The notes below the pieces were generated by a model that worked only from the letters and a program-made list of their open reading frames with translations, was not told where the DNA came from and ran no database searches. Source: Alphaproteobacteria bacterium (GTDB lineage: Bacteria; Pseudomonadota; Alphaproteobacteria; Bin95). Taken from it: a stretch of 64,000 bases of DNA. This document shows, piece after piece, positions 5,162 through 60,825 of this stretch (position 1 is the first letter of the stretch; the number at the start of each line of letters is the position of its first letter). The translations under genes were made by a program, and so were the position numbers. The stretch lies in NCBI GenBank assembly GCA_965205265.1, contig CBDBGH010000001.1, positions 96,001-160,000 on the forward strand, in the 5' to 3' direction.

Positions 5162-6428
<1,267 letters not shown>

Positions 6429-17450: not shown

Positions 17451-18919
<1,469 letters not shown>

Positions 18920-19564: not shown

Positions 19565-20560
19565 CTACGCCGCGGCGACCGCGAGTCCGGCGGAGCGGGC
19601 CCGCTCAGGCCGCAGCGCCGCGCCGAGCGCCTCGTAGTGGCCGTACCAGGGGGCCGGCGTTCCCAGTCGGGCGCCGTGCAGTTCGGCGATGCCCGCGGCG
19701 ATCTCCCCGGCCTTCGGGCCGTGGGCGGCGCGGAACGCCGCCGTGACGCGGCCCTCGGGCTGCCCGGCCATGGCGCGGATCTCCGTCGCGGAGAACGCCC
19801 TGTAGAGCCTGGTGGCCGTCCGCTCCCTGTCGCCGTCCTCCAGCTGCCCGGGCGAGGCCATGCTCCTGATGAGTTCCTCCCGTTCCCGCTGGAGGTCGGC
19901 GGGCGCCAGCGGCGGCGAACCGTAGCCGAGCGCCTCGGCCATCGCCTTTCCCAGAAGCCTGTCCCGGTCGGTCGTGGCGGCGGCCTGGGCGGCGGCGGCA
20001 AGCCTCTCAAGCCCCGTGGGCTCCGCTTCCTTTCCGGCGGCGCGCCGGATCCCCTCGGCGTGCAGCGCCCGCCACTCGTCGAGTTTCCCGTGCTGGATGA
20101 AGAACGGTTCCCCCTGGAAGCGGGCCGTCTCCGCCGCGATGGCGTTGTCGGGATCGAGCCGGGTGACGGCGTCCACGCGGAGGTCGGCCGCCGCCCGGGC
20201 CGCCGCGATCCGCCTAGCCCCGTCCATCCCGCGCCCGTCCATCGGCCGCCCGTCTGAGGCGAGCACCCGGACCAGCTCGCTCTCGAGGTCCATGCCATGG
20301 ACCGGGTTCGCCGAATCCACCCGCTCGGTTACGAGGCACGCGAGCAGGCGGGCGGTGGTCCCGTATTCGCGGACCGCGTCGGCGCGCTGCCGCCGGCGTT
20401 GGGTTTCCGCATCGGGTTCCGCCAGCGCCGCCGTCCGACGCGGTGGAGGGGCAGGGGAGGCGCTGCGGCCCGCGCCGGTCCGTCCCTGCTCCCACCATCT
20501 TCCGGGAGGGACATCGGCCCAGGTGTGGATTTCCCGCCGCTCCCACTCCGCCTCCCGCAA
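19565..20560 (-). CDS. Hypothetical protein made mostly of the domain shared with the FIC protein C-terminus
   Basis: Colinear motif matches to 43094-43891; AGGAGG just upstream of the TTG start. Confidence 0.7.
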   Translation of the reverse strand: MREAEWERREIHTWADVPPGRWWEQGRTGAGRSASPAPPPRRTAALAEPDAETQRRRQRADAVREYGTTARLLACLVTERVDSANPVHGMDLESELVRVLASDGRPMDGRGMDGARRIAAARAAADLRVDAVTRLDPDNAIAAETARFQGEPFFIQHGKLDEWRALHAEGIRRAAGKEAEPTGLERLAAAAQAAATTDRDRLLGKAMAEALGYGSPPLAPADLQREREELIRSMASPGQLEDGDRERTATRLYRAFSATEIRAMAGQPEGRVTAAFRAAHGPKAGEIAAGIAELHGARLGTPAPWYGHYEALGAALRPERARSAGLAVAAA

Positions 20561-20566
20561 CGCCTC

Positions 20567-21037
20567 CTAGCGCTCGATCCAGCGGTTGAGCGCGGCCATC
20601 GCGCCCGGCAGGGACTGGGCGAGGAACCGGCCCTCGTCCCGCGACAGCGGCATCACCGTCAGCCCCCGACCCGGTGCCGCCGAGTGGAAGATCAGTTCGG
20701 GAGTCCCCTCGGCGACGGAAACGCACAGGCGCACCTTCGTCTGGCCAAGGTCGGCGTCGGTGTCCCATGGAAGGTCGGCTGGGCCGTCCGCCCGGGCGGA
20801 CCGGTCGCTGGCCTCCGCGCCGGGCTGGCTCCAGCTCCCGGCCGCCGCCACGGCGGCCGGCAGGGCGTCGGCGAGGAAGCCGGATTCCTCGAGCGACAGG
20901 GTAACCGACCGCTCGCCGCCGACAGCGGCCGAATCGAACGCCATCCCCGCCCCGCCGTCCCCATCGACGGCGCGGAGGCTAAGTCTGGTGCCGCCGATAC
21001 TGGCCTGTGTCTTCCATCTGAAGGTGTCCGCGTCCAC
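20567..21037 (-). CDS. Hypothetical protein with two tandem ~65-aa repeats
   Basis: W.T.A.(I/L)G.T...F.SAA.G...LS..E..FLA..LP.A.AA...W occurs twice; GGGAGGA precedes GTG at 21037. Confidence 0.65.
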   Translation of the reverse strand: MDADTFRWKTQASIGGTRLSLRAVDGDGGAGMAFDSAAVGGERSVTLSLEESGFLADALPAAVAAAGSWSQPGAEASDRSARADGPADLPWDTDADLGQTKVRLCVSVAEGTPELIFHSAAPGRGLTVMPLSRDEGRFLAQSLPGAMAALNRWIER

Positions 21038-21057
21038 CGCGTCCTCCCTTCCGTTCC

Positions 21058-21342
21058 CTACGCCGCTGCGCCGCCGGACTCCGGCGGCCGGTCGGGCCCC
21101 GTATGGACGGCCATCGCCTCCGCCAGCGCCTTCCCCCCCTCCACGAACATCTCGATCGTGAACCGGAGCGCCTCGGGTTCCGAGGACTCCACCGTGAAGG
21201 TGCATCTGTGGCAGGTGGCCTCCACACCGTCGAACGCCCCCCCATGGCCGATGGCCAGCGCCGTCTCGACGCCCTGGCCGTCGCAGATCGGGCACCGGCG
21301 CAGGTCCGCGGGCCACAGGGCGATTTCGTCCGGGTCGTTCAC
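21058..21342 (-). CDS. Small zinc-ribbon protein, Lar (restriction alleviation)-like
   Basis: DLRRCPICDG...ATCHRC; family call is tentative. Confidence 0.5.
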   Translation of the reverse strand: MNDPDEIALWPADLRRCPICDGQGVETALAIGHGGAFDGVEATCHRCTFTVESSEPEALRFTIEMFVEGGKALAEAMAVHTGPDRPPESGGAAA

Positions 21343-21459
21343 GATGTGTTCTCCGTTCCATTGGGTTCGTACACGTCGTGATCCCGGTCCGCAAGGCCCT
21401 CCGGCCGCGCGTTCCCGACCTGTCCTGCCTTCGCGATGGAAATGGCCGACCCCGCGCTT

Positions 21460-21675
21460 CGGGGCGAAATCCCGTGAGACCAGAAAATCCAGATTCTCCG
21501 ACAGCCGTGGCGAGCCCCAGGACAGGTGCAGGTTGGTGCCACCATGGAAGACGACATGGTCCAGCGACAGGGTGGCGGACATCGACAGGGCATCGATGAA
21601 CAGGACATGAAGCATGGAGGTCCAGTTCCGCGCCTCGTCCTCCTCCAACGGGCGCCGTTGTTTACGGATGGCCAT
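21460..21675 (-). pseudogene. AbiEii-type nucleotidyltransferase toxin, N-terminal fragment
   Basis: VVFHGGTNLHLSWGSPRLSENLDF matches the GGT...R.SEDLDF motif, then similarity ends. Confidence 0.65.
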
Positions 21676-21870
21676 GAAGCTTTTTTCCTAACATATAGGT
21701 TAGGTTATTGAGACCAGCGGGAACCGGAAATCCCCGCCGTCAGCTGGTCTGCCACAGGCCCTGCATCCGTGCTGCGGATATCCCCGGTCCCCGGCAACAG
21801 CCTGACCGACCGGTTCCTCTCCGCGTTGGTATGGGGAGTGGACGGCTTTGCGTTTCGGTGTGGAAATGGG

Positions 21871-22104
21871 CTATAGTTCCAGCGCCTTGCGCAGGAGCGC
21901 GTTCGCCCGTGTCTGCCATCCGCGGCCGTCGGCCTTAAGGTGATCGATGACGTCAGGGTCGAGCATCATGGTAACACGGCGCTTGCGCTGGCCGGGTGGC
22001 ATGGGAGGCCGCCCGGGGCGGATCGCATGCTTCAGGTCCGCTTCGGTGATCTCACGCACCTCGCCGTCCTCGCCGACCAGCGGCGCCCGTTCAGTGCCCT
22101 TCAT
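21871..22104 (-). CDS. brnA: BrnA antitoxin
   Basis: GRPP...KRRVTMMLDPDVIDHLKADGRGWQTRANALLR. Confidence 0.9.
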   Translation of the reverse strand: MKGTERAPLVGEDGEVREITEADLKHAIRPGRPPMPPGQRKRRVTMMLDPDVIDHLKADGRGWQTRANALLRKALEL

Positions 22105-22357
22105 GGATCTTCCTTTCCCGTCTGTTCGCCCTTCTCATGGAGATCACGCGAAGCGCGTCTCCCCGGAACGTGAACGCCACGACGACCACAAGGTCGTGCA
22201 GGCGGCCAAGGCAGACCTGACGCCTCTCGCCGTAGTCCTTCCGCCCATCGTCGAGGATGATCGCCGTTTCCCAGTCGATCAGCGCCACATCGGCGAAATC
22301 GAGGCCGCGCTCCCGCAGCGTCGCCTGCCGCTTCGTTTCGTCCCAGTCGAGCTTCAT
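22091..22357 (-). CDS. brnT: BrnT ribonuclease toxin
   Basis: MKLDWDETKR...RGLDFAD...DYGERR...RVISMRRANRRE. Confidence 0.9.
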   Translation of the reverse strand: MKLDWDETKRQATLRERGLDFADVALIDWETAIILDDGRKDYGERRQVCLGRLHDLVVVVAFTFRGDALRVISMRRANRRERKIHEGH

Positions 22358-22422
22358 GGAGTTGTTATATGCATATTAAATCAGGTCTGCAAGCGCCCAG
22401 GGAACCGCATGGCAACTCCAGG

Positions 22423-22560
22423 TGTTGCGTCACCCATATTTTTGCCACCCGCGGTTTTCAATCCCTTGATTCCGAGCAATAAAAAATATAGACTGGCCGA
22501 CCTGCTCTCCACCGGCACTCGCCCCGCTTTTCCACAGCTTTCCGACCGAATTCGCCAGTC
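22423..22560 (+). mobile_element. Orphan transposon end (TGT-type), diverged homolog of 26633
   Basis: TGTTGCGTCACCCATATTTTTGCCACCCGCGGTTTT aligns with TGTCGCGACAACCATATTTTTTCCACCTGCGGTTTT. Confidence 0.5.
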
Positions 22561-22784
22561 CGGCAGGAGATCCAGACCGGAACGTCCCGGTTTCTTGGCG
22601 CTTCACCCGCCCGCTCTGATCCCGGAAAGGATGTCCGGCGAATCAGTCCCGTCCCGGACAGCCCCTTGACGTCGGCGCATATCCTGTCCAGACTGGCGTC
22701 ATGATTTCGGTCGTATCTTTTCTTATTCCATCCCCGCTGCTATCGCGGGCCGCGGCTCGCGCTTCAGTGACGGAGACACCTGAC

Positions 22785-23030
22785 ATGCGCCGTCCGCGCA
22801 TCCTGGCGATGGTTTTGCCACTGGCTCTGGCACTGGCGACGGGTGCCGCCCGGGCGGATCTCAACCGGCTGGAACGTCTGGCGGTATATCAGTCCGGCTA
22901 TGTCCTCGACCACGACCATCTGCGGGCGGTGTTCTACGCCCCTCAGGGCATGTTCTGGATACTGCCTCCGGAGGGGACACAGGCTTCCCACAGGTTCTTC
23001 GAGGTGCTCCGAACGGAACGCTCGTTGTGA
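22785..23030 (+). CDS. Small hypothetical exported protein or fragment
   Basis: Signal-peptide-like MRRPRILAMVLPLALALATGAARA; GGAG upstream. Confidence 0.4.
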   Translation: MRRPRILAMVLPLALALATGAARADLNRLERLAVYQSGYVLDHDHLRAVFYAPQGMFWILPPEGTQASHRFFEVLRTERSL

Positions 23031-23322
23031 CAAAGCGGCGTTCCGCGATCCAGGCGCGAGCCAACGCGGCAGGATCGGGTCAACACTGATGGATGTGTTC
23101 GCCCTCCTTGTCGGTCTGGTCGCTGGAGGGCTGGCTTTGCGCAGCGACGACAACGGGTCAGTGCCGGATAGAGCTTCAAGTGAGCCGACGGAGGCACCAA
23201 TCCCCGCCACGCGGCGGCGTGATCAACCAACTTGGGCTACACCCATTTGCGAATGGCGGCTTGACCCCCCCCCCCAATAGTGCAGCACTGGGATCGCTGA
23301 CTAGGGTAAGGGGCGAGATATT

Positions 23323-25365
23323 ATGGATTTCCGAATGGCATTCGCGGGGTTTGTCCGCAAGGCCGCCGCGGCGGCCTTCGTGGTGGCGGTGGCGGCAGTA
23401 TTGTCATCTTGCGGCGGCGGGGGAGACCTGCCGACCCCACAAATCGATTCTCAGCGCGCTTCGGCACAAGCTCAGCTGACTGCCTTGCGGAGCGCCCACG
23501 GAGAGGCCGTCCGGGCTTTGGCCCGGCTGAAGACCGGCACAGGCGCCGCCACCCGAGCGGAAATCGCGGCCGCCGAAGCGGCGGTCCGGGCGCTGGACGC
23601 CGCGCTCGCGGCGGCCGTGGATGTCGCTGGCGCGGACCGCGCTCGGTACGGATCGACCCAGCTCAAGGCCGATCTGGCGGCGGTGAAAGCCGAGGCGCGG
23701 GAAAACATCCGGGGGCAAGAGGATGAGAGGCGACGCCAGAGACAGGCGGCGGCAGTTGATGCGGCCGCGGAGGCATTGAGTGATGCGTCTGAGCGTCTGC
23801 GCAGCCTTGGCGACAATGCGAGTTATGCGGAGATCACTGATGTCGAAACCGCGTTGGCATACCTGGAGACTCAAATCACCGCCGCCGCCGATTGGTCAGA
23901 TGACGCAAAGGATAGTTGGCGCGCGCCATTAGCAGGTGTAAGGCCCCGGCTTTCACGTCAAAGAGCGGCGTTGCTGGCAAGAACGCGCGCAAGAGACAGC
24001 TCTCGGAACTTTCGTCCAAGGGAGCGAGGGTGGTCCTATGGTCCGGCTTGGCAGCATAAGTCACCCGCAATCGACGACTTGTCCAGAGTTTCCAGTCGCG
24101 GTGGCATTGAGATCCGATCAGGTCGTTGGCGCGACCGGCAAGGTCGGGACGGCAGCGTCAGCGCCGCCCGATTGGCCGAATATTTCAACTCGGTTGCGCG
24201 GGTTGAACTTCGGGAAGAAGGTGATGTGATCAGGGCTAGGGATTTCGGCTCCTACAGGCGTGTCCGAGTGAACGACAATGCCACATCAGAGCAGCGTGCC
24301 GCTCTCGATAGAGCGATACAAAACATCAACGAAGTGCTGCCGTATGAAAAAGAGCTACGGCGGGGTTCGGATATCCCACGATTAATCGGCCCGATCAGCG
24401 GCGACGATTTGTATGACAGCCTCAAGGATGGAGAGATTCATATACACTTTACGGACGGACAACGGAACTGGCCGTACGATTGGGACAATTACGATGCCGC
24501 GGGCTTCGGCGGCGTGCAGACCACCTGTTTGGACCAGGATTGTTTGCAGACAAGGATCAAGACGGGCTATGCCTTAATTGACTGGAGCACTCGAAACGAC
24601 AAGGACGATCTTGTCACGCATGAGCTGCTCCATGCTCTCGGGATCTCAGGTCATGTCGAAGTCAGCCGCTTTCCCGACGCGATCCTCGCGCACCAAAACC
24701 AGGACGGCACCACATTGGATGTTTCCAGCACCGTGGAAGGAAAGGTCCTATTGGCCATCGCGACGAACCGGGTGGCGAACGGCACCCGATGGGCCGATGT
24801 CACTCCATCCAGCTTCGGGAATTGGGAGCGGGATGCGTTCCATCTCCTCGGCTGGGCGGACACCGGCAACGGGAGCGGAGACATCCAGTTCGGGGTCAGC
24901 TGGGCGAACGGACTCGCAACACCCTGGGCATTCGGCCATGCGAGACCGACTCGGCGGCTGCAAGACAATGCCGCATTCGGCGGCCGCGCCACATGGAACG
25001 GCGTTTTGCTGGCCGTCGACACCAAGGGTGAAGGTTCGGGCCGTACTGTGGCTGGCGACACCGAGATTTCGATTGAATTTTCGTCCCTCCAAGGCCGGGC
25101 GGATTTCACCGGGTTGGAATCCTGGTCCCCAGGAAGCCATCCGGGAACAGCCGCCAACGGCGAAATCTGGGGAGACGGCGACCTCGGATATTCCATCGAA
25201 GTACGCAATCAGGGTGATTTACAGTTCTTTTCCAGCACCAACGTTTCGTCAGCGGATGACCCGGGCGTTGTCAGCGGTTTGTTTGTTGGAACATCCCACC
25301 AAGGCACGACGGGAACCCTCGAGCATCCCGGGCTGATTGGCGCCTTCGGAGCTCTTCGGGAGTGA
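23323..25365 (+). CDS. Surface lipoprotein: helical stalk, zinc metallopeptidase and C-terminal TbpB-like beta-barrel
   Basis: Lipobox LSSC-GGGG, HELLHALGISGH, ATWNG...G.F.G...GAFGALRE C-terminus. Confidence 0.75.
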   Translation: MDFRMAFAGFVRKAAAAAFVVAVAAVLSSCGGGGDLPTPQIDSQRASAQAQLTALRSAHGEAVRALARLKTGTGAATRAEIAAAEAAVRALDAALAAAVDVAGADRARYGSTQLKADLAAVKAEARENIRGQEDERRRQRQAAAVDAAAEALSDASERLRSLGDNASYAEITDVETALAYLETQITAAADWSDDAKDSWRAPLAGVRPRLSRQRAALLARTRARDSSRNFRPRERGWSYGPAWQHKSPAIDDLSRVSSRGGIEIRSGRWRDRQGRDGSVSAARLAEYFNSVARVELREEGDVIRARDFGSYRRVRVNDNATSEQRAALDRAIQNINEVLPYEKELRRGSDIPRLIGPISGDDLYDSLKDGEIHIHFTDGQRNWPYDWDNYDAAGFGGVQTTCLDQDCLQTRIKTGYALIDWSTRNDKDDLVTHELLHALGISGHVEVSRFPDAILAHQNQDGTTLDVSSTVEGKVLLAIATNRVANGTRWADVTPSSFGNWERDAFHLLGWADTGNGSGDIQFGVSWANGLATPWAFGHARPTRRLQDNAAFGGRATWNGVLLAVDTKGEGSGRTVAGDTEISIEFSSLQGRADFTGLESWSPGSHPGTAANGEIWGDGDLGYSIEVRNQGDLQFFSSTNVSSADDPGVVSGLFVGTSHQGTTGTLEHPGLIGAFGALRE

Positions 25366-25599
25366 CTCGATAGTCGATCAATGGCTGGGCCCAGGTCGGA
25401 ATCTTTGGTCGGGGCAAAGTGTATCATTCCGAGTCCCATTGGAAGAACCCAGCCCAGCGGCCGTTCCCGACAGGCGTTGACGAGACAGAGCAGCATCCGC
25501 GTCCGCAGCCTGTCCGCGATTGCCGGGACAGCCGAGACGCACGAACCCAAACCGTCCTTGCCCCCATATCTCAAGCATCGGCAGGACAAACTCGCGGCG

Positions 25600-25845
25600 A
25601 ACAGGCACCGCCCCAATGATTCTGACGTGTACCCCCTTTCCAACCTTGATGCGCGCCGCAGCCTCGCGAACGGCAAGACCTTTTTCGATCGGCGTCTTCG
25701 CCCGTGCCAGTCTTTCAGCCGTGACGACAGCCTTGCGTCCACCTTTTCTTTCGCGCACGGCGGCGGCACCCAGGCCAGCGCGAGTTCTCTCCCGGATGAG
25801 GTCGCGTTCGAACCGGGCAAGGGCACCGAACAGGTGACCCATGCC
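25600..25845 (-). pseudogene. Serine resolvase/invertase C-terminal fragment
   Basis: HLFGALARFERDLIRERTRAGL.AA..R.RKGGR followed by an HTH-like segment. Confidence 0.75.
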
Positions 25846-26632
25846 GCGGTCCGGGAGACCGGCGGTGGTGGGTATTCCGAGGCCAGGGCACAGTTCGAGG
25901 GGAACCCGGACTATCCGGAGATGGATCGCCAGGACGCCTACGAGGCTGCCATCCGGGACGGCCTTCGCCGCCTCGACGAAACTGTACCCGTTCCCTCGGA
26001 GACCGAGCGTCGCGTGGCGCGCGCCGTGGTCGCGACACGGGGCACCGGGCGGCACGGGCTGGCGCTGGCCCCTGCGCAGGCGCTGGAGCGTGGGACGCCG
26101 CCGACCGCGGACAGCATCCGTAGGGAGCGGGATGCCGTCATGGGGCAGCTGCGGGATGGCACGGAGATTGTTGACCCATACGAGGGGCGGCCGTTCCTGC
26201 GACGGGTCTACCGCAGCTACATTGCCGCGGAGACCATCGAGATGTCGGAGGGGAGGGGACAGCTCCTCCGGCGCCTGGCCGACGGCGCGTCGCGGACGCG
26301 GGTCCGGGATAGGCTGTTGAGCCTGCACCGCGACGTCACCTATCCGGAGGCGTCTCCCTGGCGCCGACACCACGATGCCATCGCCCGCGCGGCCGGACTG
26401 GACCACCGCCACGAACGCGGCCTCGGCGTGGAGACCGACCTCTGAGGAGCGTTCGCGCCTCCTGTCGCCAAGGCCATACCTTTCTGCGGCTGTCGTTCGA
26501 TCATGAGGCGGCTGGCATCCGAATGGCGCAAGAACCAAGTGGAAAGGGGAGCACCACGATGGATGAATCGAAAGTTCGTTGCGCTGGCTCTCCTTTGCCG
26601 CATCGGATAGTGTTTGAGTAGGATCACGCCGG
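25842..26632 (+). repeat. About 790-bp near-identical duplicate of 43288-44078 (3' part of the FIC fusion gene plus downstream DNA)
   Basis: Direct sequence comparison; bounded by the resolvase fragment and the TGT transposon end. Confidence 0.9.
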
Positions 26633-26770
26633 TGTCGCGACAACCATATTTTTTCCACCTGCGGTTTTTCCACCCCGTTGATTTTACGAGACAAAAAATA
26701 TGGGCCGGTTGACCAGCCCTCCACCGCCATCCGCCTTGGGTTTTCCACAGAAAACCGCTTTTTCCACAGA
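26633..26770 (+). mobile_element. Orphan transposon end (TGT-type)
   Basis: TGTCGCGACAACCATATTTTT starts exactly where the 790-bp duplication stops. Confidence 0.55.
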
Positions 26771-26936
26771 TTCCCGACCAAATCTGCCCGTTCGGCAGGA
26801 GGATTCTGGCCGGAACGCTCCGATTTTCCTGGAATCACCCGCCTGCATCGGTTCCGGAAAGGATGCCCGGCGACTTACCTATGCCCGGCAAAACGCCTGA
26901 CTTCAATCCATACCCTGTTCAGGGAAGGGACGGCGG

Positions 26937-33640: not shown

Positions 33641-34159
33641 ATGACCGGTGTGATATGTGAAGTCCTGAAGGATTTCCAGACCGCCATTGTAGGCGTGGTT
33701 GGTTTTGCCGGTGTGATCCTGACCCTGTCCGCCAACGCCTGCCTGACCCGCAGACAGCACGAGAGGGAACAGGCAGGGCGTCGCAGAGTGGTTGAGACTG
33801 GCCTGCATGAAGAGCTCGGAGCGTTTCCTGGAATGGTCGAACGGAACCTGGAACACATTGATTCAATCAAGGATAACGACCGCAGCGACCTGAACATCCT
33901 GCGTGTTCGCCCCATCGTTTCCGACCACCTGATCTTGGATGTTGGAATGCTTGAAAGGAACAGGGCACAGGCCGCACTGCGGGGCGTGATGACGGTGCAT
34001 GAGCTGAACAGGAAACTGGTTCTGTTCGCGGATGGAATATCGGAAGACTACATCCGTGTGAAAAGGGAAAAGACCGCTTGTCTGACAGCGGCGTACCAAA
34101 GCGCATTGCCTGGACTGCGTAAAGCTGTCGAAGCGCCTGCGCCCAATGAAAGACGATGA
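33641..34159 (+). CDS. Hypothetical protein with an N-terminal membrane segment
   Basis: FQTAIVGVVGFAGVILTL followed by a charged helical region. Confidence 0.5.
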   Translation: MTGVICEVLKDFQTAIVGVVGFAGVILTLSANACLTRRQHEREQAGRRRVVETGLHEELGAFPGMVERNLEHIDSIKDNDRSDLNILRVRPIVSDHLILDVGMLERNRAQAALRGVMTVHELNRKLVLFADGISEDYIRVKREKTACLTAAYQSALPGLRKAVEAPAPNERR

Positions 34160-34422
34160 ACGATGGGCCGGCAGGCCTATATGGTCAAGCCCACTCGTGT
34201 CCAGACAGCTTCCCGTAACCTGGCTGTCCGGCCTGTGCCGGACGGTTGACAGCTTCGCCGGAAAAAACGCCGCCCGCGGCCTGGCCGCGGGCGGACTTTA
34301 CCATGGTGGATCCCCTCATCCTGATCAGGGAAAGCACCACACTTGCCCCACAGCTGTCGCTTCCGTATGACTGACGCATGAAAAACGAATCGCCAGACGC
34401 CGCGGATTGTGGTAAGCTGAAG

Positions 34423-34578
34423 AAGCGGCCAAGCGGCCAAGCGGCCAAGCGGCCAAGCGGCCAAGCGGCCAAGCGGCCAAGCGGCCAAGCGGCCAAGCGG
34501 CCAAGCGGCCAAGCGGCCAAGCGGCCAAGCGGCCAAGCGGCCAAGCGGCCAAGCGGCCAAGCGGCCAAGCGGCCAAGC
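34423..34578 (+). repeat. Simple sequence repeat (AAGCGGCC)x19 plus AAGC
   Basis: Counted directly: 152 nt of perfect octamers at the 5' end of the MTase-HNH gene. Confidence 0.95.
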
Positions 34579-35890
34579 ATGAAGCCAACTGGCTGAACCG
34601 GACGCTGTTCCACGGCGATAACCTGACGTTTCTCCGCGCGATGAACTCCGAATCGGTGGACCTGATCGCCACCGACCCCCCGTTCAACAAGGGCCGCGAC
34701 TTCCACGCCACACCCGACAGCTTGGCCGCCGGAGCCAGGTTCCAGGACCGCTGGTCCTGGGAGCGTGATGTCCATACGGAGTGGGTGGATCAGCTGACCG
34801 ACGACCAACCGAAACTGATGGCGGCCATCAACGCCGCCCGGGCCACCCAAAGCGACGGCATGGGCGCCTATCTGTGCTTCATGTCTGTGCGGCTGCTGGA
34901 GATGCGGCGGGTACTGAAGAAGACGGGCAGCATCTACCTGCATTGCGACCCCACCGCCAGCCATTACCTCAAGGCGGTCATGGACGCCATCTTCGGGTGG
35001 CGGAATTTCTGCAACGAGATTGTCTGGTGTTACACAAGCGGCGGCGTGAGCGATCATATTTCGAAAAGAAGCATGATTTGATCATGTCTTATGCCAAATC
35101 ACACAAAAGCTATACATTCAACACTCAATATCGTCCTTATTCAGCAGGAACGATGCAAAGAGGACTGACCCAATATAAGAAGAATCTGAATGAAGCTTAT
35201 CAATTGAGCAAAAAGGGTGCTGTGCAGAATGACTGGTGGACCGATATACAACCGATCCTAAGCCCTACCGCTAAAGAGCAGACTGGCTACCCGACCCAAA
35301 AGCCGTTAGCGCTCTATTCGCGCATCATCAAGGCGTCACCCAACGAAAACGATATTGTCCTGGACCCATTCGCAGGCTGCGCCATCACGCTGGTGGCGGC
35401 GGAAATTGTGGGAAGAAAATGGGTTGGCATGGACATTTGGGAAAATGCCAAATCCGTAATAGTCGAACGAATGGAACGTGAAGGGTTGATTCAGAAGGGA
35501 CGACAGGCGAAACAGGGAAACCTGTTCGCACGGGACATACACTTTACCGACCGGCCCCCGGAACGAACCGATGAAGGCGACGAGGCTGTGCTTTTCCTCC
35601 GCGTCAGGGAGCGGGTCAGGGAACCTGACGGCCCGCGTTGGACGCGTAGGGAGATGTATGAGTATCTTCTGACGCAGTACGGCTATCAATGCATGGGCTG
35701 TAACCGGACATCCGACGACGACCCGCGCTGTCTTGAGCTTGACCACAACACGCCGCGTTCCGACGGCGGGCTGAACCACATATCCAACCGCATCCTGCTG
35801 TGCGGGCCGTGCAACCGGCTCAAGAGCAACACCTTCACGCTCAGCGGACTGCGGCGGGAAAACAGGAAGCTTGGACATATGAAACGAAGC
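34578..35890 (+). pseudogene. N6/N4 DNA methyltransferase fused to a C-terminal HNH nuclease; frameshift near 35050
   Basis: NRTLFHGDNL, IATDPPFN, IYLHCD, GYPTQKP, VLDPFAGC; then CMGC...LELDHNTPRSDGG...NRILLCGPCNRLKS. The 3' limit is approximate. Confidence 0.85.
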
Positions 35891-35981
35891 CAGACGGCGA
35901 GCGCAAAGGCGAATTTTTCAGATACAGCCAATGTTCAGGTCCGGCCCCCGCCGGGCGGTTCAGCAACCAGGGAGAGAACAA

Positions 35982-36971
35982 TTGGGATACAGCAACCATT
36001 CACATCCGGCGCCTCTGGCCATCCTGGCCATCGCGGCATCGGGACTTCTGGCCGCCTGCGGTGGCGGCTCGGGGACCGCGACCGGATCGCAACCAGCCTA
36101 TTCGGAAGATCCGCCCCAGGAAACGGTCGCCGAAATTTCGGTCAGGCTGGCCGGGCTGGATTCACGGTCGGATTCCCGTTTCCTGTCCGCTCTTTACGTA
36201 GAGGACATTGACAAACGTCCATTTATACCTGTCTGTGAGGGAGACGTGAGCCTCTCCGAGTCGATGTGCTATTTTCATTCAAGTCCGGATGCAGCTTCCC
36301 CATATACGCATAGAGGTCTGCAAGGATTCCCCTTTACGGCTTCCGGGCTGGAAGCCAGAACAGCTTTCAGCAGGCATGGCATCACCATTGTCGCTCAGGA
36401 ACACGACAACGAAGCTGGTGACGTGGACTTTCTCAGGTACGGAGCCGTCATGAATCACAGCGCGTTCGCTGCTCAAGGCGTCGGCGAATTGGTTTATCTA
36501 GAGGTATTCGGCCAGTACCTTCCACTCAGATTGGATGACATCTCTCCTCCTTTCGGATGGAGACGGCGTTCCTACGCATTCGGTGACCTGACGGGATCAG
36601 GTCCGGACGGTTCGGCCACATGGACCGGACTCATGGTCGGCGTTCCGATCAGTGACAGAGCCGAAGACCGCTCCAACTTCCTGCAGGGGGACGCTTCACT
36701 CACATACGACTTCGCGGATACATCTCTGGACGCATCGTTCACCGGCATAAGGAACATCGTCACGAAAGCGGACCACTCGGTCCGGCGCCTCCGGTTCGAT
36801 GACATTCCGGTTTCCGACGACGGGAGGTTTCATGGATACGAACTGGAGCCAGGTATCAGAAAGGAGATCGCCGGCGGCTTCTACGGTCCCGGACAGGCGG
36901 AAACCGCTGGCATTCTCGAGTACGTCGAGGCGGGGGAGGGAATTGTCGGATCATTCGGAGCCAGGCGGTAG
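35982..36971 (+). CDS. Surface lipoprotein with a C-terminal TbpB-like barrel and no protease motif
   Basis: AGGGAG then TTG; LAAC-GGGSG; SATWTGLMVG...IAGGFYGPGQAETAG...VGSFGARR. Confidence 0.75.
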   Translation: MGYSNHSHPAPLAILAIAASGLLAACGGGSGTATGSQPAYSEDPPQETVAEISVRLAGLDSRSDSRFLSALYVEDIDKRPFIPVCEGDVSLSESMCYFHSSPDAASPYTHRGLQGFPFTASGLEARTAFSRHGITIVAQEHDNEAGDVDFLRYGAVMNHSAFAAQGVGELVYLEVFGQYLPLRLDDISPPFGWRRRSYAFGDLTGSGPDGSATWTGLMVGVPISDRAEDRSNFLQGDASLTYDFADTSLDASFTGIRNIVTKADHSVRRLRFDDIPVSDDGRFHGYELEPGIRKEIAGGFYGPGQAETAGILEYVEAGEGIVGSFGARR

Positions 36972-37228
36972 ACAGCGCAGGTGTTGACGGCGGATTGTAA
37001 GGGCGGGATTCCGGCGGTTCCGGACACGAGGTGGCCGGTGGCGGTTTCGGGACGCCCGACATGGCGGACTTTTTCGGCGCAACGCGGCCGTAGCGTGTGG
37101 ACAGCGTCCGGCCGGTTTCAGGCCGTATCAGGCGCAGGAGCGGCGCTTTCTCGCCCAGCGCACTGAGACCTGACCGCCAATCCCAGGGTCCGGCATCCAC
37201 CGGAGGTCCATCAACCAGGGAGAGAGAC

Positions 37229-38596
37229 ATGGAATCCGAAACACGATCAGGCCCAGCACCATTGACCCTACCGGTCCTTGTGGCCGCGGCTTTCCTGACC
37301 GCCTGCGGCGGCGGAGGAGAGGGCGGCGGAACCGCGCCCGGGATGGCGGGGCTGGGCGACCATACGCGGCGCCCCGGCGACACCGTCCGCCTGGGCGGGG
37401 AGCGCCTGTCGGTCCAGAATAGCGTGACGTTCCGTTCGGGGACGCTGCGCGACCCCAACGCCCGGAGCGCGGCGACCGTGGCGGCCTATCTCAACAATGT
37501 CGGTTATGACGAGGATGAAGCAACCACATACCTGGTGCCAACCGGACCGGTCACCCTCCGGGTCCACGGCGGGACGGCCGGTGAGGTCGCGATGGTCAGG
37601 AGGATCGCCGCCGACATGAACCGGGTGCTGCCGCGCAGCCACCGGGTGTCCGTCGGCACCGGAACCCTCGACGTGTCGGAATTCGGGGCGGGGAGTACCC
37701 GGGACGTGATCGATATCTGGATCACGTCGGGCAGGGCCGACTGGCCGCGGGATCTGGTTGAAAGGCATCCTACCGCTCTGGGGATCGGCGGCCCGTTACG
37801 AATATGGAGCCGAATCGAGGGTCATTCATGGAAGGCCGGACGGGTTCTCCTCAACCGGAACACACGCGACCTCCATCCACTCACAATCCACGAGATACTG
37901 CATGCCTACGGGATAACGGGCCATGTCAGTAACGCACGGTTCCCGTCCAGCTTCATGGATCGCATACCGGCGCGATCGACAGCGGGGTCGCTTACGACCT
38001 CGATCGACGGCGAGGCGCTCGTCGCCCTGACGCGGATGATGCAACGCAGGCCGTTCCGTCCGGGAGCCGGGATCAAGGCAGGTCAGGTCAGGCCCGACCA
38101 TTTCGGTCCCTGGACCGAGACCGTCTTCCACATCGCCGGGACGGCCGGTCCCGCCGGTTTCGGCGCCTCCTGGCGCAACGGCGTGGCGCGGAGCTGGGTC
38201 CTTGGCACGAAACCCGCAGGCCCCGTCTCCGGCACCCTGTCCGGAAGCGCGGTCTGGGAGGGCGCCCTGGCGGGCTTCACCGCTGCCGGCGCGACGGTGA
38301 CCGGCGACGCGGCCATAGGTGTGGACTTCGCCGCCATGTCCGGGCGGGCGGAATTCGACCGGCTGGAAAGCTGGGGCGACGGGGGACATCCCGGGCCGCG
38401 CGGAACCGGCGCCGTCTGGGGCGACGGCGATCTGGGCTACACGCTCGGGGTCTCCGCCGACGGTCTCGGGTTCAGGTCGACCGGCGGCGATCCGGGGAGC
38501 GTCGAAGGAGCCTTTCTGGGCGCGGGCCACGAGGGCGTCGGCGGAACGCTGGACCACCCGGATCTGGTGGCCGCGTTCGGCGCGGTCCGTGAATGA
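37229..38596 (+). CDS. Surface lipoprotein: zinc metallopeptidase plus TbpB-like barrel, paralog of 23323-25365
   Basis: LTAC-GGGG, HEILHAYGITGH, WGDGDLGY, GTLDHPDLVAAFGAVRE. Confidence 0.78.
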   Translation: MESETRSGPAPLTLPVLVAAAFLTACGGGGEGGGTAPGMAGLGDHTRRPGDTVRLGGERLSVQNSVTFRSGTLRDPNARSAATVAAYLNNVGYDEDEATTYLVPTGPVTLRVHGGTAGEVAMVRRIAADMNRVLPRSHRVSVGTGTLDVSEFGAGSTRDVIDIWITSGRADWPRDLVERHPTALGIGGPLRIWSRIEGHSWKAGRVLLNRNTRDLHPLTIHEILHAYGITGHVSNARFPSSFMDRIPARSTAGSLTTSIDGEALVALTRMMQRRPFRPGAGIKAGQVRPDHFGPWTETVFHIAGTAGPAGFGASWRNGVARSWVLGTKPAGPVSGTLSGSAVWEGALAGFTAAGATVTGDAAIGVDFAAMSGRAEFDRLESWGDGGHPGPRGTGAVWGDGDLGYTLGVSADGLGFRSTGGDPGSVEGAFLGAGHEGVGGTLDHPDLVAAFGAVRE

Positions 38597-38773
38597 ACGG
38601 CTCCGGGCTGGAACCAAGCCGTTACAGGATATCTGCCCGAAAGCGGGCAGGCCTTTCCATGTGGGGGAAACCGCTGGAACCGGATCCCGCGCCGTATGGT
38701 TCCCCGCTCACGTCTGGTGTGGTTTCAGTCGCTTCCGCATGCTGGCAGCATCCCTTTCATCCGGTTGGCCCGA

Positions 38774-39004
38774 TCAGGTCTCCCCATCGGCGGCCGGCGC
38801 GGGGGCGCCGTTGTCCCTGGGAATTCTCGCCAGTTGCCTGAAGAGATGTGGATGGCCACGCTTCAAGGACGGATCCCCCCGCACGGTGGTGATCAGGTGG
38901 CTGCCGTCCGGCTTGGATCGCAGCTCCATCATGCCCCTTCTGGCGTCATACCAGACAGCCAACTTGAAATAGACTGTGTTGCCAGGTTCTGATTTCTCGA
39001 ACAT
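38774..39004 (-). CDS. Small hypothetical protein (MFEKSEPGNTVYFKLAVWYD...)
   Basis: Protein-like composition and purine-rich upstream sequence only. Confidence 0.45.
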   Translation of the reverse strand: MFEKSEPGNTVYFKLAVWYDARRGMMELRSKPDGSHLITTVRGDPSLKRGHPHLFRQLARIPRDNGAPAPAADGET

Positions 39005-40406
39005 TCCGTCTTCCCTTGGTTCCGTTTGGCATCGGCTTCGTGTCGATGTCATGGCTGGTCTCCCCTGTGCTGCCCTTTGGCATGTTGGCACAAAGGCGGG
39101 AAACGGGCCATCCTGCGCTTCGCCGACCCCATAAAGCTGGCGGCGTGATCGGATAGGCGCGGCCCGAGCCGAAGTCAAACTACTGCAGGCGGTCCGCGTG
39201 GCAAATGCCGACGCGTGCGGAAGCACTCACCAAGCTTGATTCATGCATTGCCTGGGATACGCACCATGTTCCAGAACCCGACATACTGGACGGCCCGAAC
39301 CTGCTGGAACGCGCCGCAACTCGCTTCCTCGTGGATGGCGTTGATCGGCAGGACATTCCTAAGCTCCCCTTTGCGATGCTGTTAGGCTTTGGCCTTCAAC
39401 CTCATTTGAGGTCTGTCCTGGGTGTTTTTCGATGTTATCCTCTTCCATTAGCCCGGACAGGAAACCTCTGACGCATGAACCGCTCAATTCTGCGGCCATT
39501 GTCGTGGTTCATTCCAAGAACAAGACCGCATTCAGACAGTTGCATCACAGGAATTGAGTGATTGATGCGATAGCGGTTCTGTCGGGCGTACCATTTTCCA
39601 TAGTCCGTGTAGAGATGCTGAATAGGTGGTGGCCCGGCGCGACCCTAGCGAAGTGGATTTCCGCTCTAGCGGCGGGCATCGCCAAATATGTGGCTACGAT
39701 CCGTGGGAGGCCCTCTGATGTCCATCAACGCCTCGGCCATCGTTGCGACCCTGAACCACGAACCGGGATACGAGTAAATCGTGAGACATGCCGCGGATCA
39801 GGAACGTGGCTGTCACGTCTCGCCTCCGGTTCGCTTCGAGGCCCCCGCCGCCCTCGGTCGCGTTCGGAAGCGCGGCGCCCCGACTTTGACCAGCGCGAAC
39901 TGGCCGAACGGCCCGTCGGCACCTTCTGCGACGAAATCGAGGCACGGAACACCGACATTGCGCGGGCGGTCGGTCAACAGACCAATCTCGCGGCGCGGCC
40001 CTACGGCAAAATGGTCGGTCATGAGGCCGACCTGAACTCGGGGACTGCTTCGCCTACGCCTGTGCGCGGGCCTGCGGCGACCAGCTATCCACAGGGGCGA
40101 TGACTTCGCCGGAACGGATATGGCATGAGTGCGGAAGGGCGGCGGGTGAAGTGCCCGCGCCCCCGAAATATCGCGCAATAACTGGTTTTTCTGGTCTGAA
40201 TCCGCCTCCACCGGTCCGCCCCTCGGCAGATCCGACCCCTGGCGGTTTCCCCTTACGCAGGGGCCGAACGCGGAGGTGCCGGTGGGACCCTGACGCCCGG
40301 GCGAGGTCCCTCCGTGCGTTTTCTTCGGAAACCTGTTGATTCCCTCCCGGATATGGTAAGGTGTCTCACGTGTCAGGTATATGGTTCCCGGAAAAAGGAT
40401 GGCGCC

Positions 40407-41720
40407 ATGGCCGAATTCAGACGGGAGGCCCTGCAGGATTTCGTCGACACCACCGATGGGGACACACCCCCAGTCTACATCGGGCGGCAGGATATCCTCA
40501 GGAAGGTCGAAGGCTACGCCAGCAGCACGTGGAAAGGGCCAGGCGCCGATGTCCATGGCGTCGGCAAGGCCACCAGTGTCGTGCAGGGCGCTCCCGGGGC
40601 CGGCAAGAGCGCCCTCATCGACGAACTCCGGGAAAGGGCGGCGACCAGCGCCCATCTGCCGGAGCGGTCGCGGGTCCTCACCCTTTCCAGCAGGGATCTG
40701 GTCATCGGACTGCCGGACGTACTTGAACTCATCGGTCTGGCCGGAGGTGTTTCCGCCAGCATATGGGAAAAACTGTCAACCGGTCTTTCGCTGGGAGTCG
40801 ACCTGGAGGCCGTCAAGGCCCGTGCCAACCTGTCATGGTCGGCGCCCGGCAGCTCCCATCCCGAAAATATCCTGTCCCTGGCAAGGAAGTTTCCGGCGGG
40901 GAAATGGCAGGGACCGGTCATCGTCTGCGTCGACGAGACCCAGAACCTGACCGGAGGGAAGGACACCCCCCACGCCTCTTTCCTGCAGGCTGTGCACGAG
41001 GGCCGCTCGAGCCTGCCGCTCTCGCTGGTTGCGGTCGGGTTGAGCGACACGGCGGATGTACTCGATGGCATGGGCCTGACACGGCTGTCCGTCCATCCCC
41101 TGGGCGGGTTATCCACCCAGCCGGACCCGGACCGGGACGGATACACCGAGGTCATGGACCTCATGCTGTCGTTCTGCGACCATTTCGGCATCGGACGCGA
41201 AGGCGAGACCGCAAGGCTCATGGCCCTGGCCGCACCCTGCGAGGGCTGGCCACGGCACCTGCATTACGCCCTGCAGGCCCTGGGACGCGGTGTCCTGGAG
41301 ACCGCCGGCGACCTGGCCACCGTCGACTGGCCCACAATCCTGCGGGAGGCCGCCGACAGCCGTCAGGAATACTACCGGATACAGCAGAATCGGGATATGA
41401 AGGACAGCCATATGCTCGTGGCCCGCATCCTGCGGGATTTCCGCGATGGCATGGCAGGCAGTGCCGTCACGGACCTGATCCAGCGCTCCGTGGATGACCG
41501 TCCGGGGCTGCGGCTGCCCGAAGACGGAACCCCTCTGGGGTTTCGCAGCCTTCTGGTCCACCGCGGCGCCCTGCACATGGACCTGGACGGCGCCTATCAT
41601 TGCCCCATCCCCTCGTTCCGCAGCTTCCTCGTCAGGGCCGGGGGGCTGGGTCCGGAGAGGTTTCCGGAACGGAACCCCACGGAAAGGGACATTGACCGGG
41701 ATATGGACTTCAGCCCCTGA
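40407..41720 (+). CDS. P-loop AAA-type ATPase, paralog 2
   Basis: GAPGAGKS, VCVDETQ; extra C-terminal tail ERDIDRDMDFSP. Confidence 0.8.
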   Translation: MAEFRREALQDFVDTTDGDTPPVYIGRQDILRKVEGYASSTWKGPGADVHGVGKATSVVQGAPGAGKSALIDELRERAATSAHLPERSRVLTLSSRDLVIGLPDVLELIGLAGGVSASIWEKLSTGLSLGVDLEAVKARANLSWSAPGSSHPENILSLARKFPAGKWQGPVIVCVDETQNLTGGKDTPHASFLQAVHEGRSSLPLSLVAVGLSDTADVLDGMGLTRLSVHPLGGLSTQPDPDRDGYTEVMDLMLSFCDHFGIGREGETARLMALAAPCEGWPRHLHYALQALGRGVLETAGDLATVDWPTILREAADSRQEYYRIQQNRDMKDSHMLVARILRDFRDGMAGSAVTDLIQRSVDDRPGLRLPEDGTPLGFRSLLVHRGALHMDLDGAYHCPIPSFRSFLVRAGGLGPERFPERNPTERDIDRDMDFSP

Positions 41721-42088
41721 TTCCGCCAGACCGGCATCATGGAACGTGGATGGCCCTCGGACGTTCCGCAGCCTCGCCGTCCTCTGCGCCGTGCGTACGG
41801 TCGCCGAGGTCAGGGCCCCGCCGCCGCGGCGGGCGGCTGCCCGGGGACATGCCGGAGCTGCCGGTCGGGTCCGTCATGGTCGGGCGGTGGACACATATGG
41901 CCCGGGGTCTTCAGGTTTCGGTATTGACGCCTGACGGGCAGCTGTTCTTTCCATCCACCCGCCACCGCCGGCCGTCAAGCGTTCACGGATATGCCGGGTG
42001 GGTAGTGCATTCGCGGCGCGGACAGGATAGGATTGCCTCCGGGGCGGGGAAGTCGGCGGCGTGCCGCCCCGCCCGCCGGAGATGGAAT

Positions 42089-43891
42089 ATGGACGAAAAG
42101 CCGATCGGGGCCGTCTGGAGGCCGGTGCGCGACCTGGCGCCGGAGCATCGGGGCCTTGCGCATGAGCCTGCGCGGCAGGCCGCGGCCCGCTGGAGGGAGG
42201 CCCGCCGGAGGCTGGAGGATCCGGGGATCGACCGGTCCTCCATGGATCTCTGGCTCCAGTCGCAGAGGCGGGCGTTTGCCATCGAGACCGGCCAGATCGA
42301 GGGTCTTTACCTGCTGCGCCGGGGCGTGACCGAGACACTGATCGCCGAAGGCTTCGAGAACGTGCGCGGCGCGCATTCGGTGAGCGACATCGGCGACGAC
42401 ACCCTGAGGGGTCTGCTGCAGGACCAGGAGGCGGCCCTTGAGATGATGTTCGCGCATGTGACGGACGAGCGCCCGCTGACGACATCCGCCATCAAGGAAT
42501 GGCACGCGCTCCTGACGCGTCACCAGGACACCGCGACCGGTATCGACATCTTCGGGAAACGGGTCGAGATACCGCTGCTCAAGGGACAGTGGAAGATATG
42601 TCCCAACAATCCCCGCCGGGACGACGGGCACGTCCACGAATACTGCCCGCCGGAGCAGGTGGCGGCGGAGATGGATCGGTTCCTGGAGTTTCACGAGGGG
42701 CATGCCGGGATGGGCCTCGCGCCCGAGACGGAGGCGGCATGGCTGCACCATGAGTTCGTGCGCATACATCCCTTCCAGGACGGCAACGGCCGGATTTCCC
42801 GGCTGCTGATGGCCTACGCCTACGCAAAGGCGGGAGAGTTCCTGCCGGTGATTCCCGCCCAGGGCAAACTGGACTACATCGAAGCTCTCGACGCGGCGGA
42901 CGAAGGCAGGTTCACCGCGTTCGTTGAATATCTCGGACTTCTGGCGACGGCGCGTTCCCAGGCGGCGGCTGTCCGCGCCGAAGGCATCCTCGCTGGCCGG
43001 ACGAACTTCCGCCACGGCAATGGCGGCGTCACATCGAACGGGGTCTACCATCCGCCGGAGGAACTGGCTCCGGGCCCCGACCCGCGTATCGCCGACGACG
43101 CTGTCGTTCTCACCTGCGCGGTCTCCGAACGTATCGACTCCGCCTCTCCCGTTCACCGGAGTGCGCTACCCGTGGACGTGGCGGAGGTACTGGAGGTATC
43201 GATCCAGGCTGGAGACGTTCCGGAGGACGAGGTCGATGGTGTCGCCCGCGGAATCGCGCGGAAGCGTGCCGAGACCGACCTGCGGGTTGCCACGGTCCGG
43301 GAGACCGGCGGTGGTGGGTATTCCGAGGCCAGGGCACAGTTCGAGGGGAACCCGGACTATCCGGAGATGGATCGCCAGGACGCCTACGAGGCTGCCATCC
43401 GGGACGGCCTTCGCCGCCTCGACGAAACTGTACCCGTTCCCTCGGAGACCGAGCGTCGCGTGGCGTGCGCCGTGGTCGCGACACGGGGCACCGGGCGGCA
43501 CGGGCTGGCGCTGGCCCTTGCGCAGGCGCTGGAGCGTGGGACGCCGCCGACCGCGGACAGCATCCGTAGGGAGCGGGATGCCGTCATGGGGCAGCTGCGG
43601 GATGGCACGGAGATCGTTGACCCATACGAGGCGCGGCTGTTCCTGCGACGGGTCTACCGCAGCTACACCGCCGCGGAGATCATCGAGATGTCTGAGGGGA
43701 GGGGACAGCTCCTCCAGCGCCTGGCCGACGACGCGTCGCGGACGCGGGTCCGGGATAGGCTGTTGAGCCTGCACCGCGACGTCACCTATCCGGAGGCGTC
43801 TCCCTGGCGCGGACACCACGATGCCATCGCCCGCGCGGCCGGACTGGACCACCGCCACGAACGCGGCCTCGGCGTGGAGGTCGACATCTGA
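42089..43891 (+). CDS. FIC-domain protein fused to a ~265-aa unrecognised C-terminal domain
   Basis: Canonical HPFQDGNGRISR and inhibitory-helix-like TGQIEG; C-terminal part homologous to 19565-20560. Confidence 0.88.
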   Translation: MDEKPIGAVWRPVRDLAPEHRGLAHEPARQAAARWREARRRLEDPGIDRSSMDLWLQSQRRAFAIETGQIEGLYLLRRGVTETLIAEGFENVRGAHSVSDIGDDTLRGLLQDQEAALEMMFAHVTDERPLTTSAIKEWHALLTRHQDTATGIDIFGKRVEIPLLKGQWKICPNNPRRDDGHVHEYCPPEQVAAEMDRFLEFHEGHAGMGLAPETEAAWLHHEFVRIHPFQDGNGRISRLLMAYAYAKAGEFLPVIPAQGKLDYIEALDAADEGRFTAFVEYLGLLATARSQAAAVRAEGILAGRTNFRHGNGGVTSNGVYHPPEELAPGPDPRIADDAVVLTCAVSERIDSASPVHRSALPVDVAEVLEVSIQAGDVPEDEVDGVARGIARKRAETDLRVATVRETGGGGYSEARAQFEGNPDYPEMDRQDAYEAAIRDGLRRLDETVPVPSETERRVACAVVATRGTGRHGLALALAQALERGTPPTADSIRRERDAVMGQLRDGTEIVDPYEARLFLRRVYRSYTAAEIIEMSEGRGQLLQRLADDASRTRVRDRLLSLHRDVTYPEASPWRGHHDAIARAAGLDHRHERGLGVEVDI

Positions 43892-55401: not shown

Positions 55402-55414
55402 AAGGAGTCCGGAC

Positions 55415-56670: not shown

Positions 56671-56747
56671 CGGGTGTGGGCGTTCCGTTCGGGGGAAAAG
56701 CCGCCGCCAGCGGAGCGTCGGCGCGCGCCGTTCCGGTCCAGGTGTCC

Positions 56748-60786: not shown

Positions 60787-60825
60787 TGGGCCGCCCGCAG
60801 CCTAAACCGGAAAGGGAGTCTTTCA

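Follow-up and report, generated by a model that had tools for sequence, protein, structure and literature searches.

The question raised by this locus is what a C-terminal domain might do when it ends both a FIC enzyme and other proteins encoded on one alphaproteobacterial plasmid. The stretch analysed here, which we refer to as the window (64,000 nucleotides), comprises bases 96,001–160,000 of a 193,076-bp contig (65.7% G+C); this contig is a RepC plasmid, and the genome has two other contigs, one of 43 kb and one of 5.46 Mb. The original prediction, made from the letters of the window, had drawn attention to a module shared by the C-terminus of the FIC protein and an open reading frame (ORF) at 19565–20560, and had suggested that it is a modular translocation domain analogous to the BID domain of Bartonella. 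We consider it probable that the module is a relaxase-derived translocation-signal domain, distinct from BID, for a conjugative type IV secretion system (T4SS) of Trb/VirB type, and that it is read by the coupling protein. This proposal starts from the homology of the module copies, their C-terminal position, the spectrum of their partners, the fact that the resident relaxase ends in the module and the plasmid encodes a T4SS, and the absence of any relation to BID that we could detect; binding to the coupling protein, translocation, and an effect in recipient cells are what we would predict from these sequences.

Copies of the module on the plasmid

The FIC ORF (41750–43891) and ORF 19565–20560 give a single collinear BLASTP alignment between residues 451–699 of the former and 70–326 of the latter (82 of 262 positions identical, 31%; E 2e-15 with composition-based statistics). 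The two proteins do therefore align in order, as had been claimed, and every one of the motif pairs quoted in favour of that claim falls inside the alignment.

The FIC gene lies on the plus strand within an open frame that begins at 41750, and its start is set at 42089 (likely start MDEKPIG) because similarity to a chromosomal FIC paralog, in DNA as in protein, starts at that codon; from there it runs to 43891 and encodes 600 residues. The product consists of a FIC part (residues 1–332), a short linker, and the module (residues 339–600, 262 residues, encoded at 43103–43888), for which 13 helices are predicted and which closes with a disordered Arg-rich tail ending RGLGVEVDI. The FIC domain (Pfam Fic, PF02661; 42473–42817, plus strand) scores 66.7 bits against a cut-off of 24, and the canonical motif HxFx(D/E)GNGRxxR, already recognised in the original prediction, is present as HPFQDGNGRISR at residues 227–238 of the 600-residue protein. 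The paralog, 80% identical to the plasmid gene over 951 bases of DNA and 79% identical over about 335 residues of protein, has no module and stops a few residues before the point at which the module would start. Since the homology to the paralog ends where the module begins, the plasmid protein can be divided into FIC part, linker and module. Towards the N-terminus, at residues 67–72, there is a TGQIEG sequence that fits what we take to be the class II auto-inhibition pattern, (S/T)xxxE(G/N). If this classification is correct the enzyme has an internal inhibitory-type motif, whereas FIC proteins of the VbhT type rely on a separate VbhA-like antitoxin.

The second protein had been mis-delimited: ORF 19565–20560 does carry the module, but it is the 3′ part of an interrupted gene and not an unrelated ORF in its own right. 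The gene, of approximately 489 codons, lies on the minus strand at 19565–21037 (read through from about 21037 to 19568) and has one in-frame stop, a TAG at 20567–20569 on the same strand, which divides it into ORFs of 275 and 331 residues. The joined reading frame aligns by tblastn, in one frame, with residues 1–488 of a 488-residue metagenomic protein (63.6% identity), and is 47% identical to a metagenomic protein of 473 residues. As the two parts share one frame, are separated by a single TAG, and together align with the full length of the 488-residue protein, ORF 19565–20560 is not a complete gene. Contigs from three other public sequencing runs, about 99% identical to this region, have another letter at 20569 and a sense codon in place of the stop; the gene is intact in close relatives and either interrupted or mis-assembled here. 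Its N-terminal part of about 215 residues belongs to no known family, and the N-terminal 175 residues of the 488-residue relative have no usable match in the ESM Atlas. The C-terminal part is the module (19568–20347, minus strand), which is 29–33% identical to that of the FIC protein.

A tblastn search of the whole genome finds the module at five places, all of them on the plasmid, with no copy on the other two contigs. One of these is a truncated plus-strand copy at 25842–26445 (tblastn span 25834–26442) that retains the 3′ two-thirds of the FIC module. It had been described as a third, recent and partial copy, and this is borne out by the DNA, as window positions 25842–26632 are 97.7% identical over 791 bases to positions 43288–44078. 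The copy covers module residues 63–265 at 93% protein identity; because it starts at module residue 63 with this level of DNA identity it is a 5′-truncated duplicate, and it is joined upstream by chance to an unrelated open frame. The remaining two are the module on a 509-residue ORF (contig positions 65234–66763) and a degenerate copy with internal stops (contig positions 22552–23389), both located by tblastn, the latter duplicating the 3′ end of the 509-residue ORF region with 86% DNA identity. Among the module genes of the plasmid the FIC gene alone is intact, and its present activity is uncertain.

The resident relaxase, the secretion system and the partners of the module

The 509-residue ORF overlaps the end of a 1512-residue ORF that encodes a Ti-type TraA relaxase, with MobA_MobL and AAA_30 domains and a TIGR02768 score of 639 bits against a cut-off of 590.45. 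A relative of 1976 residues, encoded by a single ORF, is 68% identical to the 1512-residue ORF up to its residue 1455 or thereabouts and 55% identical to the 509-residue module ORF from its residue 1464. Because this relative spans both ORFs, the plasmid traA is a single gene in which the reading frame changes where the two ORFs meet, and it follows that the module is the C-terminal domain of the relaxase itself. The frame change maps to contig positions 66748–66763 (positions 2990–3040, approximately, on the minus strand of locus L003), in a G+C-rich run between the ...IPDA and VLGEV... codons, and could be either a real lesion or an assembly error.

The original prediction had noted that no T4SS genes lie in the window. 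This holds for the window itself, but the same plasmid carries a Trb-like T4SS that starts approximately 2.3 kb beyond its right edge (contig positions 162.3–177.9 kb, approximately). Pfam and NCBIfam identify homologs of TrbB/VirB11, the TrbC pilin, TrbG/VirB9, TrbE/VirB4, TrbL/VirB6, TrbF/VirB8 and TrbI/VirB10, together with a TraG/VirD4 coupling protein homolog of 732 residues in the same region; all of them score under the curated cut-offs, which indicates a divergent system. The idea of a modular domain residing on a plasmid is thus upheld, with the resident relaxase itself carrying the module and both a T4SS and a coupling protein encoded on the same molecule.

When a profile made from the three intact modules was run against 1.84 billion representative proteins, 115 relatives came up at E of 1e-3 or better (74 of them at 1e-10 or better and 36 at 1e-30 or better), and these we re-scored with a hidden Markov model built from a 42-row alignment. 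The module lies nearly always at the C-terminus of these proteins. Of the 115, 76 have matches extending into the last 20 positions of the model; 73 of those matches end no more than 40 residues from the C-terminus (median 3 residues), the three exceptions stopping 80–99 residues before it. The match begins at the start of the model in 72 relatives, 48 of which have at least 100 residues upstream.

What lies upstream is varied, as a Pfam scan of 60 relatives of at least 300 residues makes clear. Ten are relaxases or relaxase-helicases: seven MobA_MobL relaxases (four of them giants of 3.5–3.7 thousand residues with several helicase modules, two of which also have Toprim), one TrwC (MOBF) relaxase, and two relaxase-helicase fragments with AAA_30 only. 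DnaG-type primases and ArdC proteins (ArdcN plus a zincin peptidase) are represented by two each, AbiEii by four and HepT by two, and there is one each of NTP_transf_2 (a nucleotidyltransferase), Fic, a YhgA-like nuclease, an ankyrin protein and AAA_16, leaving 35 with no Pfam family in the partner region. The check put forward with the original prediction, a hidden Markov model search for varied N-terminal partners, therefore brings up many, including two MOB relaxase families, primases, ArdC and toxin-antitoxin toxins. Textbook accounts of conjugative T4SSs name relaxases, plasmid primases and ArdC among the proteins sent through them. As for the toxins, Harms et al. (2017, PMC5675462) describe a relaxase-type signal on VbhT, on the FicT of Methylorubrum and on the PezT of Chelativorans.

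This spectrum bears on the possibility that the module is unrelated to secretion, being instead an appendage that regulates, auto-inhibits or binds an antitoxin, or no more than a mobile domain that has spread among plasmid genes. Some chromosomal AbiEii-module genes do lie away from any T4SS, each with an upstream ORF of 282–287 residues that is a possible antitoxin, and there is no family or fold match that would give a function. However, such roles fail to explain why the module should terminate relaxases of both the MOBQ and the MOBF type as well as primases and ArdC, or why it is found on the resident relaxase beside a T4SS, and we regard them as very improbable.

Further module genes were located in genomes of other organisms. 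A locus search with a three-sequence alignment yielded four loci from species genomes, and four metagenome-assembled genomes (MAGs) have 1 to 5 module copies each, including an open frame of 3842 residues. A MAG of Boseongicola provides a second case of a T4SS-linked module. In this genome one contig has a cluster of VirB4-like, TrbL, VirB8 and coupling-protein genes, syntenic with the T4SS of the plasmid, and an AbiEii-module gene, preceded by an ORF of 282 residues, lies 2.5 kb downstream of the cluster; elsewhere in the same MAG an 1822-residue TrwC relaxase ends in the module. The MAG encodes two coupling proteins that are 55% and 51% identical to the plasmid TraG, the latter being that of the cluster. 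Among metagenomic proteins, TraG homologs and module proteins report the same longest-contig sizes (108,283 and 18,708 bases), a hint that the two may be encoded by common contigs.

By tblastn, none of 72,556 PLSDB plasmids has a copy, and the module is in none of 400 other genomes of the same class, with BID in two of the 400, these being samples and not proof of absence. A word-index search finds 20 module proteins, one of them the 354-residue ORF that holds the window's own partial copy and the other 19 from ENA (metagenome) sources, and none of the 20 carries a name.

A maximum-likelihood tree of 68 full-length modules, from which we removed a row that merely repeated an ORF of the window, shows relaxases and cargo interleaved. 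The relaxase label changes eight times over the tree (bootstrap range 7–9), and at least five of these changes are forced by well-supported branches. The FIC module falls in a clade of 21 rows (support 100/100), among whose members are two MOBF relaxase rows, a giant MOBQ relaxase and HepT proteins; the module of the interrupted gene clusters with those of the resident TraA, its 1976-residue relative and a 1917-residue relaxase (94/91); and the ArdC modules cluster with three other relaxases. As the FIC module and that of the resident TraA fall into different subfamilies, the former is not derived from the latter. Each subfamily of the module thus places a relaxase next to cargo, which is the arrangement also reported for the classes of BID (PMC6509941).

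The same interleaving might be read as a sign that the module is a docking or oligomerisation domain for the relaxase or for a relaxosome accessory protein, and that cargo is recruited indirectly. In favour of this are the presence of a relaxase next to cargo in every subfamily and the 1 to 5 copies per genome in the four MAGs. But co-clustering of relaxases and cargo is equally expected if the module co-evolves with a coupling protein, and T4SS substrates are reportedly passed unfolded and singly, such that we consider recruitment through the relaxase very unlikely.

Fold and tail in comparison with known signal domains

AlphaFold2, given the 42-row alignment, returns an all-alpha model of 13 helices with a disordered tail (predicted local distance difference test score, pLDDT, 92.4; predicted TM-score 0.89); a model made from a three-sequence alignment was unusable (pLDDT 49). 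As had been anticipated, the module cannot be assigned to a known family. It has no family in Pfam at E up to 1 or in NCBIfam, PHROGs and PADLOC give no family for seven proteins each, and a sequence profile search of the PDB yields noise only, the best match being ribosomal L23 at E 0.09. A match to a known non-secretion family, which would have told against the original prediction, was looked for in these searches and none was found. The ESM Atlas contains no usable match for the module (best 0.88, in unnamed clusters).

The fold searches give a similar picture. Foldseek against the PDB finds no match at E up to 0.001 (best E 0.7, with TM below 0.25). VIA-align over 48,161 chains gives a best Z of 5.4 (7nb6_A, with a root-mean-square deviation of 7.0 and 100 residues aligned) and only two chains at Z of at least 5, although most of its rows cover residues 31–135 and the C-terminal half is less well tested; a second look over 994 chains gives a best Z of 4.1. 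Scores of this size are low, even allowing for the helical character of the model. No BID, XVIPCD or relaxase chain is among the fold matches listed, although a likeness at the level of a sub-domain could still escape.

These results bear on a further possibility, that the module acts in the recipient. There it would bind the single strand as it arrives, the complex of relaxase and DNA, or some conserved target of the recipient, and so gather relaxase, primase, ArdC and toxins at one site once transfer has taken place, while only the short tail or other signals would serve for export. Transferred DNA is the substrate on which relaxase, primase and ArdC all act; the domain is also large and, in the model, well folded, and BID domains are reported to have gained secondary functions (PMC6509941). 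However, no DNA-binding fold is among the fold-search results, the strictly C-terminal position fits T4SS signals, and HepT, AbiEii and Fic, as toxins directed at RNA or protein, together with the ankyrin protein, have no evident need for targeting to DNA ends. We therefore think a role in the recipient unlikely.

To our knowledge folded T4SS signal domains are few, namely BID, XVIPCD, and TSA and TSB of TraI, and we know of no instance in which TSA or TSB, which are internal to TraI, occur as portable modules on toxins. BID (PF17841, Bep_C_terminal in Pfam) is among the closest parallels. In Bartonella Beps, VbhT and alphaproteobacterial TraA it is, like the module, C-terminal and followed by a disordered tail, and so the C-terminal position of the module in relaxases and toxins of conjugative systems is a trait of BID type. 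According to PMC5675462 and PMC6509941, BID is also like the module in being common to Ti-type TraA relaxases and to toxin-antitoxin toxins (FIC and others) on conjugative plasmids, and in that the toxin version has paralogs without the domain. Harms et al. (2017, PMC5675462) show, in their comparison of VbhT with FicT, the same pattern of one protein with the domain and one lacking it that we see for the plasmid FIC protein and its paralog. In the same article, VbhT and the FicT of Methylorubrum extorquens p1METDI resemble the plasmid FIC protein in their location on a conjugative alphaproteobacterial plasmid and in having a relaxase-type C-terminal extension.

There are also differences from BID. 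The module is approximately 245 residues with 13 helices, whereas BID is about 100 residues with four (an antiparallel four-helix bundle with a hook), and the partners of the module extend beyond those of BID to TrwC relaxases, primases, ArdC, AbiEii and HepT. With the BID profile PF17841 the plasmid yields no match even at E 10, the genome only three weak ones (E 0.24–1.4, all chromosomal), and the 60 scanned relatives none at E up to 1e-4; as a positive control the profile detects the TraA of p1METDI at 27.8 bits (E 3e-7), a plasmid without any match to the module profile at E of 1 or below. Comparison by hhalign of the module with the C-termini of 39 BID-bearing TraA proteins of Methylobacterium type gives a probability of 0.2% for the whole module and 0.2–0.3% for each half, whereas two subsets of the BID TraA proteins aligned to each other give 100%. 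To judge by these profiles the module is not detectably a BID domain, and the earlier suggestion of an analogue, not a member, of that family has held up. The possibility that the module consists of two tandem BID-like units finds no support, its N-terminal and C-terminal halves matching each other at 0.2% by hhalign.

The tail may be a further point of difference. An Arg-rich stretch followed by GL(G/A)V, pointed out in the original prediction, does recur across the family, but it is less plainly basic than the tail of BID substrates. In the 41 full-length tails listed, the last 30 residues are Arg-rich plus acidic, with a net charge of −3 to +6, and they often end R-G-x-(G/S)-h-x-h, frequently with ...EPF at the terminus.

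The XVIPCD of X-Tfes, the antibacterial T4SS effectors of Xanthomonas type, is according to PMC8740702 likewise C-terminal, present on diverse toxins and composed of a folded part with a flexible tail, the folded part binding the all-alpha domain of VirD4. It is about 120 residues of alpha-alpha-beta-beta-beta topology, has conserved motifs and a Gln-rich tail, and is not reported from relaxases. The module in contrast is all-alpha, its model being without strands, has tails that are Arg-rich and not Gln-rich, and is found on relaxases. TSA and TSB of F/R1 TraI are like the module in being folded translocation-signal domains within a conjugative relaxase (PMC3912908 and PMC6509941). In the literature we found no account of a non-BID C-terminal signal of relaxases and toxins like the module, nor of AbiEii with T4SS signals, although a nameless domain is hard to find by words.

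By analogy, we think it likely that the module does the job of BID with an unrelated all-alpha fold of about 245 residues and a short disordered Arg-rich tail ending G-h-x-h. It would in that event probably constitute a further T4SS signal-domain family, unrelated to BID and XVIPCD but functionally like them.

Proposed delivery route and genetic surroundings

A plausible sequence of events is that the protein docks onto the TraG/VirD4 coupling protein through its folded domain, its tail or the two together, and would then be passed by the coupling protein into the channel. The relaxase would pilot the DNA strand by the same route, and primases, ArdC and toxins with the module would be delivered to the recipient alongside. 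In this model the module would be the recognition domain of the relaxase for TraG, copied onto other proteins, and the FIC protein would be a self-inhibited enzyme (AMP-transferase) of housekeeping type that gained the module and so became a candidate interbacterial effector.

We would give an even chance to a broader proposal, in which the module docks proteins to the coupling protein by means of a fold not seen before and defines a so far unrecognised class of protein delivery, coupled to conjugation, in Alphaproteobacteria. This proposal would include repeated swaps of the module among relaxases of the MOBQ and MOBF types, primases, ArdC and no fewer than four families of toxin-antitoxin toxins (AbiEii, HepT, MNT-like and Fic), the injection of sets of ‘addiction’ toxins into recipients with the plasmid, and a terminal R-G-x-G-h-x-h(-E-P-F) tail as the element that enters the channel. 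The genomes in which the class is seen here are Paracoccaceae MAGs and the present plasmid.

Several observations weigh against a translocation signal read by the coupling protein. In two Paracoccaceae MAGs the AbiEii-module genes lie amid chromosomal housekeeping genes with no T4SS gene within 10 kb, and these MAGs have only weak matches (about 40 bits) to the family of type IV coupling proteins. The tail is not clearly positive, unlike that of BID and the VirB paradigm, and the partner region has no assignable family in 35 of the 56 relatives of 300–2000 residues. A domain of 245 residues is large for a mere signal, and it may have another role. The FIC module is only about 33% identical to that of the resident TraA and belongs to another subfamily, so that its cognate partner may be some coupling protein other than the resident one. 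Finally, the split traA, the TAG in the 489-codon gene and the two fragment copies make the system look partly decayed on this plasmid.

If the module is nevertheless a signal for the T4SS, the cargo that plasmids send into recipients could be enumerated, as the known folded T4SS signal domains each allowed effector sets to be listed from sequence and proteins to be delivered by engineering. The idea derived from VbhT, that toxins of toxin-antitoxin systems serve as interbacterial effectors, would extend to AbiEii, HepT and other families, and the module would offer a clean test case for how coupling proteins read their substrates. With a model of pLDDT 92 it is ready for structural and transfer assays.

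The surroundings of the module genes have features of their own. Directly upstream of the FIC gene is an ORF of 468 residues with a P-loop and no Pfam family (window positions 40314–41720), which has a paralog of 75% DNA identity, 423 residues with AAA_22/AAA_16, in the opposite orientation at window positions 1718–2989. The C-terminus of the chromosomal FIC paralog (L014:3396–4565) reads ...PPSPSPFDDD, and a C-terminal motif in common with it is found in the Uma2-family ORFs that adjoin two of the plasmid module copies (L003:567–1319 and L005:443–1195), which end ...SPSPFD and ...APSPFD; Uma2 genes are also near the module genes at two Paracoccaceae MAG loci (L020 and L021). The region of module genes in the window is flanked by three copies of an IS110-family insertion sequence (5481–6428, 17772–18719 and 45474–46421) that are 93–94% identical over about 1.47 kb.

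For the plasmid as a whole, ORFs were called with a third-position G+C filter, a heuristic that may miss genes, and 113 of them were scanned against Pfam. The plasmid encodes RepC (window positions 48256–49782), a ParA-type ATPase and DnaB, as well as many insertion sequence and Tn3 copies, toxin-antitoxin pairs, restriction-modification genes and a type IVb pilus cluster, and both ends of the contig carry identical 3.7-kb copies of a Tn3-family element. Just upstream of the trbE homolog are three tandem, paralogous small ORFs of about 100–140 residues (78–80% DNA identity; contig positions 165541–166850, minus strand), for which no family was found. The pilus cluster spans window positions 51060–64000 and continues to about contig position 160037, with a PilN-family secretin (51060–52535), a GspE/PilB-like ATPase (57935–59611), a PilS/bundlin-like pilin (60826–61452) and, just past the end of the window, a prepilin peptidase. 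The Trb-like T4SS lies directly downstream of it, and the thin pilus genes of IncI-type plasmids have a comparable position upstream of the T4SS.

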